Shown here piece by piece: positions 22,160 to 22,828 of a stretch of DNA of 64,000 nucleotides. A model generated the notes under the pieces. The model did no database searches and was not told the origin of the DNA. It was given only the letters and a program-made list of their open reading frames with translations. A program made the translations under genes and the position numbers. Each line of letters starts with the position of its first letter. Positions within the stretch are counted from its first letter, which is position 1. Source of the DNA: Pocillopora damicornis (lineage: Eukaryota). The DNA lies in the NCBI RefSeq assembly GCF_003704095.1, contig NW_020844911.1, forward strand, positions 124,001 through 188,000, given 5' to 3'.

Positions 22160-22233
22160 AACGACACTTTTTAAAAACGTGTTTCGACAGTTCATCTGTC
22201 ATCTTCAGTTCTGAATAATACAAAGTACAAAGT
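22160..22233 (-). ncRNA. Hammerhead-ribozyme-like motif, family 2 (left arm of a 70-bp inverted repeat pair)
   Basis: Minus strand reads CUGAAGA-U-GACAG(AUGAA)CUGUC-GAAA-CAC..GUG-UC: conserved core, 5-bp stem II, stem III and a GUC triplet at 22165-22163. Stem I is imperfect. Confidence 0.6.
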
Positions 22234-22254
22234 CGCATTTTAAGTCTGTAACAG

Positions 22255-22270
22255 CCTCTCACATTTTCAT

Positions 22271-22319
<49 letters not shown>

Positions 22320-22528
22320 TATAACAGGTAATTTAGTGTTAATAACTGAATTGAAAATGTAAATTGGCCACCATAAAGAGTAAAAAGGCTGAAGTTTCGA
22401 GCGTTAGCCCTTCGTCAGAGAGATAGACGAAGGGCTAACGCTCGAAACGTCAGCCTTTTACTCTTTACGGTGACAAAATTTACGTTTTCAGCTCAGTTGT
22501 TAACACTAAATTACCTCTTACATTTTCA
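22255..22528. mobile_element. Family-1 palindromic HHR/Penelope-like insertion with a 15-bp target-site duplication
   Basis: Minus arm ctCTGACGAagggctaacgctcGAAActtc; plus arm agacgaagggctaacgctcgaaacgtc. Flanked by cctctcacattttca (22255-69) and cctcttacattttca (22514-28). Confidence 0.8.
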
Positions 22529-22754
22529 GACATCTTCATAATTCTCCACAATATCGCACTCTTTGTTCTGATAAGTGTTTTAACATCTTAGATCACGCTT
22601 CCACAACTTTTTAACTTTAAATCAAAGAAGCTATCCACATTAAATGGGAGAAACCTACACTTAATGACCAACTTTATCATGTTAATTTAAAACTTTATTT
22701 GTAAATGCATACATTGTTCTGATATTATTGTTTGTTTAGTCCAAGCAGCATTCA

Positions 22755-22828
22755 ACTTTGTGCTTTGTATTATTCAGATCTGAAGATGACAGAAGAACTG
22801 TCGAAACATATTTTTAAAAAGTGTCGTT
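22755..22828 (+). ncRNA. Hammerhead-ribozyme-like motif, family 2 (right arm)
   Basis: CTGAAGA (22780-86) T GACAG-aagaa-CTGTC GAAA cat...gtGTC (22823-25); reverse complement of 22160-22233 with a few substitutions. Confidence 0.6.

Follow-up and report, generated by a model that had tools for sequence, protein, structure and literature searches.

An outward-facing hammerhead pair beside an MRPL1-type gene of Pocillopora damicornis very probably belongs to a decayed Penelope-like element

Two hammerhead-like motifs face outward from an inverted repeat in a 64,000-nucleotide stretch of Pocillopora damicornis DNA (contig NW_020844911.1, positions 124,001 to 188,000; hereafter the window, whose own coordinates are used throughout). 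They lie between an MRPL1-type ribosomal protein gene and a beta-helix gene, which raises the question of whether they are the remains of a mobile element or a self-cleaving cassette that acts on the transcripts of its neighbours. An earlier note on this DNA had left both answers standing. The segment 22158–22846 is very probably a single 5'-truncated, decayed, endonuclease-bearing Penelope-like element (PLE), in which the hammerheads of both terminal repeats are mutated and predicted to be inactive.

The inverted repeat and its copies in the genome

The inverted repeat, put at about 70 bp in the earlier note, is real: its arms (22160–22238 and 22750–22828) are 79 nt long, 91% complementary and separated by a spacing of 511 nt. 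Homology to the family extends beyond the arms, covering 22158–22253 on the left and reaching about 22846 on the right. Each arm contains CUGAAGA, one extra U, a 5-bp stem II, and GAAA. A 28-nt pattern representing this core has 53 exact matches in the genome searched (G000) and none for the reversed control, and the hammerhead cores described for both arms are therefore not products of chance. A search against Rfam, one of the checks proposed at that time, did not recover them, although the cores are real by pattern: no hammerhead family was among the 11 matches obtained at E ≤ 10 for positions 20000–26000, and the top matches were miRNA models located on the inner palindrome.

The proposed count of genome-wide copies showed the arm to be a dispersed repeat, with at least 42 matches of 86–100% identity (40 of the 124 candidates scored), many of which form minus/plus outward-facing pairs as in the window. 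Between the arms, the segment 22514–22760 is repetitive as well (43 matches, mostly of 82–90% identity). Two of the copies (L032 and L040) are located on the same contig, share flanking sequences, and have an inversion junction about 10 nt from that of the window; they probably represent a segmental duplicate.

Structure of the element

The components of the element and of a second repeat nested within it are as follows.

22158–22253, minus strand: inverted, shortened, tail-less copy of the PLE 3' pseudo-LTR (pLTR), sharing 88–94% identity with most of the family's arms across about 95 nt
22254–22269, plus strand: first part of the truncated ORF remnant, adjoining the inversion junction between 22253 and 22254; the same letters occur in family ORF copies
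22255–22269 and 22514–22528, plus strand: copies 1 and 2 of a 15-bp target duplication, a direct repeat flanking the nested insertion
22270–22513, long arm on the minus strand and short arm on the plus strand: nested second hammerhead repeat, an outward-facing pair flanked by the 15-bp direct repeats
22514–22704, plus strand: final 62 codons of the PLE ORF, covering the end of its GIY-YIG endonuclease region, with two in-frame stops
22705–22846, plus strand: 3' pLTR and the remnant of a one-sided tail (about 22829–22846), delimited in an alignment of 49 arms

The element runs in the order inverted pLTR, end of the ORF, and pLTR with tail, and its 3' pLTR shows internal deletions relative to the family in the alignment of 49 arms. 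The endonuclease-coding remnant between the arms, which was absent from the earlier note, shares 67% identity (E 1e-18) with residues 759–819, the extreme C-terminus, of P0006, an 821-aa protein containing RVT_1. PF26215 was found in 33 of the 34 longer homologues of a sister frame, 32 of which contain RVT_1 as well. The sister copy L064, 1.7 kb in length, carries the same two arms (94 and 83% identity to the window) and a reverse transcriptase (RT) frame matching RVT_1 at E 5e-4, below the curated cut-off; its RT and a GIY-YIG-type motif (endonuclease frame) are located in consecutive frames. Pfam matches to GIY-YIG are weak, being detected in three of seven sister frames at E values of 0.006–0.08, below the curated cut-off, and none was detected in the frame of L017. 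No full-length intact ORF of the window's exact family was found.

Among 15 loci tried, 12 contained a scorable pair of arms and three did not. In 11 of the 12 pairs, including that of the window (tail score of 15 for the left arm versus 40 for the right), a single arm bears the tail, and the outward-facing layout recurs at the 11 scorable pairs outside the window. Core-to-core spacing in the 12 pairs varies from 103 to 1607 nt, and direct repeats of 10–16 bp flank the arm ends in five of them. For an outer target duplication of the window copy, only a chance-level 6-mer and no recognisable duplication was found.

Inverted pLTRs, 5' truncation, a tail at one end, and RT/endonuclease homology, all features of endonuclease-bearing (EN+) PLEs, are thus seen here, and the PLE relic proposed in the earlier note is borne out by the ORF remnant, the RT-bearing sister copy, the inverted pLTR and the one-sided tail. 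The frames lack a Zn-finger in the RT-EN linker, and the element may therefore belong to the Penelope/Poseidon clade. According to PMC3846280 and 10.1101/2021.04.23.441226, EN+ PLEs carry pLTRs in direct or inverted orientation and a one-sided tail of 30–40 bp. The window copy resembles the canonical insertions described there in its 5' truncation, inverted 5' pLTR copy and tail at one end, in the target duplications of its sister copies, and in the nested insertion into an older PLE; unlike them, it has an eroded outer duplication.

Dispersed copies with inverted ends would also be expected of a MITE-like DNA element whose terminal inverted repeats merely resemble hammerheads. To this reading we give almost no credence: the core spacing is too variable (103–1607 nt), the ends are asymmetric, the duplications are 10–16 bp long, the interior codes for RT and endonuclease sequence, and the stems covary between families. 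It is refuted by L064, an RT-bearing copy with the same two arms.

The nested repeat and a possible origin of the pair

The nested hammerhead pair, likewise absent from the earlier note, belongs to a far commoner family, with 605 exact motif matches against none for the control (3517 candidates, of which 40 were scored). The palindrome of its left motif (C3 at 22418) is broken and C3/U4 are missing from its right motif, and the locus is an assembly of four hammerhead relics, all damaged. Many contigs end at 22269–22272, the left edge of the nested repeat. Counting the two nested motifs, the 64-kb window has seven matches to this motif type, and further degenerate copies of this repeat lie at 3068, 5523, 25275, 25669–25817, and 42819.

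The window copy may have arisen when the GIY-YIG nuclease of the element cut the target site and the RT copied the 3' end of the RNA twice, likely once for each cut strand. A short copy (pLTR only) would have been joined back to back with a longer one (pLTR plus about 200 nt of the ORF), such joining leaving both hammerheads facing outward. The second hammerhead repeat would later have inserted 1 nt from the junction, followed by neutral decay. In the parent element, two motifs in tandem pLTRs may have dimerized by way of their ACAUGU palindromes, with weak cleavage of the RNA as the result. As an alternative to priming from both cut strands, PMC3846280 proposes that an antisense template is used for self-priming.

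Ribozyme register from family comparison

The position of the scissile bond depends on the register in which the motif is folded. Positions below follow the conventional hammerhead numbering (C3, 2.1–1.1, 16.2 and so on).

The register was examined in 40 loci picked by ORF homology alone, using a scan that took no account of the sequence 3' of GAAA and found the motif in 16 of these loci and no hammerhead motif in the other 24. In total, 112 loci yielded 57 unique motifs, namely 53 in four related families, two of the nested type and two others; the counts given here rest on the 53, the remaining ones being set aside, and come from a scan that favours intact cores and from rows some of which may be segmental duplicates. 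A perfect ACAUGU palindrome immediately follows GAA in 22 of 35, 13 of 13, 2 of 2, and 3 of 3 motifs in the four families. In the minimal register, with cleavage right after ACAUGU, the pair 2.1–1.1 forms in 51 of the 53 motifs, as compared with 5 of 53 in the register of the earlier note, and the third pair of stem I is G-U, U-A, or C-G depending on the family. Closure of the long helix III is possible in 28 of 35 motifs from the window's family and in none of the 18 sister-family motifs, long-register counts being taken at a fixed offset and therefore lowered by indels.

What is conserved, by this comparison, is a ribozyme of the known minimal, dimer-type form, which would cut just after ACAUGU. 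In the window, this register corresponds to the following motifs.

22173–22211, minus strand: left minimal type I hammerhead, C3 at 22208, predicted scissile bond between 22176 and 22175
22777–22815, plus strand: right minimal hammerhead, C3 at 22780, predicted scissile bond between 22812 and 22813

The long stem III and the GUC cleavage sites at 22163 and 22825, as postulated earlier, do not agree with the comparative register, which lies 13 nt away and predicts cleavage after 22176 (minus strand) and after 22812 (plus strand). In a subfamily represented by L043, L045, and L050, an expanded A/T palindrome is found just 3' of the predicted cleavage site.

State of the two window hammerheads

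Both arms retain the core CUGANGA / GAAA / UH, with the extra nucleotide after A9 and the G10.1–C11.1 pair. All 11 core nucleotides are kept in both arms but in only 30 of 47 other copies, a point against the reading favoured here; 23 of the 47 keep both the core and the palindrome. The palindromic 15.2–16.2 region used for dimer formation is kept in the family and broken in both window arms: the centre of the helix III palindrome is changed on the left (ACACGU), and G16.2 and stem I position 2.1 are both changed on the right. The predicted homodimer duplexes have energies of −2.3 kcal/mol (left) and +1.0 kcal/mol (right), compared with −4.6 kcal/mol for an intact copy. The two arms differ at seven of 79 nt: three of these sites are upstream of the motif and one is in loop II, while the remaining one at stem I position 2.1 and two in the helix III palindrome damage the family fold. 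Only one of the seven differences is thus in loop II and three are damaging, at odds with the statement that the arms differ either in loop II or in ways that keep the pairing. To judge from these changes, the window arms are degenerate descendants of the minimal PLE hammerhead. The motifs are on opposite strands, and no single linear transcript can therefore contain both in the sense orientation.

It has been proposed that the arms are monomeric hammerheads with a long helix III that trim the 5' ends of the flanking transcripts at GUC 22163/22825. Both arms have an intact core, a long helix III of 4 bp can be drawn in each, the change at 22179 on the left strengthens this helix (C-G), and the change at 22779 on the right allows a U-G pair at 2.1–1.1. 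The left arm, however, has A-G at 2.1–1.1, and when both arms were folded neither hammerhead fold was populated: the folds in this register have energies of −3.3 kcal/mol (left) and −2.2 kcal/mol (right) against minima of −20.9 and −12.3 kcal/mol, about 18 and 10 kcal/mol above the minimum, with a probability of 0.0 for the pair 2.1–1.1. Sites changed in the 47 other copies number 20 of 517 in the core, 7 of 235 in loop II, and 37 of 235 in the closing strand of the long helix, which is the most variable part tested; moreover, this helix is absent from the sister families, and the fold lacks positional conservation in outgroup loci (see below). Cleavage within a 5' leader removes the cap, which is a further difficulty for such trimming. 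We therefore hold this proposal to be very improbable, and the arms are predicted from these folds not to cut the RNA of the neighbouring genes. Selection on the core after insertion was also considered, with 3.9% of core sites changed versus 11–12% in the flanks, but it was rejected, loop II being equally low (3.0%); the 47 rows were chosen by BLAST on the core, and its low rate is thus confounded.

Relation to known hammerhead-bearing elements

Dual minimal hammerheads located 100–700 bp apart on opposite strands are reported in PMC4209133 (Cervera and de la Pena 2014), as is a Schistosoma motif with no activity as a monomer and low activity as a dimer. Compared with the minimal type I hammerheads of metazoan PLE pLTRs presented there, helix III is here of the 6-nt ACAUGU type and H17 is mostly U. 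The closest variants in that paper are those with a 'small palindromic helix III'; in the present case stem I is only 3 bp long and both window copies are damaged.

More than 6000 motifs, most of them minimal and PLE-like, are reported for Acropora millepora in PMC7229834. The coral and vertebrate non-LTR retrozymes treated there and in 10.64898/2026.07.22.740005 are similar to the window repeat in bringing type I hammerheads into coral repeats. Retrozymes consist of non-coding units arrayed head to tail, and their ribozymes are canonical and efficient, whereas the window contains a head-to-head pair of minimal motifs with a coding remnant. A non-LTR retrozyme was rejected on these grounds, the window arms lying head to head around a coding remnant and not as head-to-tail non-coding repeats. 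A literature search combining Pocillopora and hammerhead found nothing related; the supplements of PMC4209133 and PMC7229834 list cnidarian motifs and may already include these families.

The arrangement in the window was already described in 2013–2014, and the locus is one of dozens of such relics and as a single locus has little weight. Of modest value are the four coral PLE families, in which covariation of the stems establishes the true register of the ribozyme, and the 23 of 47 copies with both core and palindrome, which are possible natural substrates for the question of whether minimal PLE hammerheads cleave in vivo.

Neighbouring genes and their transcripts

The coding sequences on either side of the element are as follows.

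21774–22052, minus strand: coding part of exon 1 of a uL1 gene (MRPL1-type), ATG at 22052, 100% identity to P0035 over 92% of the query
23639–25101, plus strand: beta-helix ORF, pectate-lyase-like, PF12708 at E 2.8e-14

The uL1 gene matches Pfam Ribosomal_L1 at E 7e-30, and P0035 is named as a Pocillopora damicornis protein by its source. The gene is presumably mitochondrial (MRPL1), given its Arg-rich N-terminus. Its splice 21585–21774 was found in three of four RNA runs. Intron 1 (21586–21773, minus strand) has a GC donor in the window, which an allele at 21772 in run X1 converts to GT. P0035 begins at the second Met, and the upstream Met and first residues (22028–22052, minus strand) are conserved in P0036 and P0037; by this comparison, the P0035 model probably lacks 8 residues.

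The left arm is sense to the uL1 gene and the right arm is sense to the PF12708 ORF, as the earlier note had stated for both motifs. The beta-helix ORF starts in or before an N gap (23539–23638), and base 23639 is more than 800 nt from the right motif. Spliced MRPL1 contigs in three of four runs end inside the coding exon, at 22019, 22027, and 21993. A contig spanning 22055–22208 at depth 2 came from a random-primed run that also contains intergenic contigs, and it may be DNA. RNA contigs cannot mark transcription starts and were not counted as evidence.

In run X15, 361 nt of the beta-helix RNA contig preceding 23639 could not be placed on the window; the 100-N gap 23539–23638 may be larger than it appears, or an upstream exon may lie elsewhere. 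The beta-helix ORF has four other matches in G000. Delivery of this gene by the PLE was considered and rejected: neither repeat is found beside the paralogues in L124–L126 (flanks of about 1.5 kb), and the gene is located outside the ends of the element.

The MRPL1 locus in outgroup corals

Eight outgroup loci were found, of which six with 953–1638 nt of upstream sequence were used and two with less than 10 nt were dropped. The six are 80–100% alike and amount to about one lineage, on which the polarity rests. No hammerhead-like motif and no homology to either repeat was found upstream of MRPL1 in any of the six. In all six (L113, L114, and L116–L119), the MRPL1 ATG is 146–168 nt from a divergent stomatin-like gene, so named from weak Band_7 matches. 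The window orthologue of the latter starts at 27097, which is 5044 nt from the MRPL1 ATG, and the interval 22053–27096 contains the PLE relic and the beta-helix gene. Since the divergent partner in the outgroups is the stomatin-like gene, MRPL1 and the beta-helix gene are not the conserved bidirectional promoter pair. The closeness of the PLE to MRPL1 is likely incidental.

The self-cleaving cassette co-opted at a bidirectional promoter, the other answer given in the earlier note, is not supported, on several counts: the layout occurs at other loci, the folds are broken, and the divergent partner is a different gene. The proposed comparison with related corals also went against it, with positional conservation of the hammerhead in 0 of 6 outgroup loci (about one lineage).

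Each junction of the insertion was bridged in three of four runs under a 31-letter rule; the four were taken from 14 main runs containing the sequence, and one may be the source sample. The insertion is common to other samples or close relatives, which fits fixation by drift, but retention too. No empty-site allele was seen among 15 of 278 joints, a sample that does not establish its absence.

It is conceivable that the PLE relic is non-catalytic and was co-opted as a promoter or 5' leader of MRPL1, of the beta-helix gene, or of both, after a 4.9-kb insertion split the MRPL1/stomatin-like promoter. The separation of the two ATGs (146–168 nt in the outgroups against 5044 nt here), the mere 105 nt of unique DNA between the MRPL1 ATG and the element, and the junctions common to several samples are in line with this explanation. 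However, deletions and a nested insertion mark the element, as they do other decayed copies, and 105 nt, about as much intergenic space as either gene would have to itself in the outgroups, may suffice; we regard such co-option as unlikely. The bolder form, in which the relic supplies MRPL1 and the beta-helix gene with their promoter and leader after the same split and one arm still cleaves, either as a re-registered long-helix-III monomer or as a trans dimer with an intact family RNA, so tuning the output of a housekeeping gene, appears more unlikely still. A relic serving as the MRPL1 promoter with a live ribozyme would, if true, be a rare case of exaptation. The locus also documents that the head-to-head pair of MRPL1 and the stomatin-like gene was broken up in a lineage-specific manner.

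A 9-nt motif located 20–30 nt upstream of the MRPL1 ATG (22072–22080) is in opposite orientation in the window and in the outgroups L113–L119; it was spotted by eye and may be due to chance.
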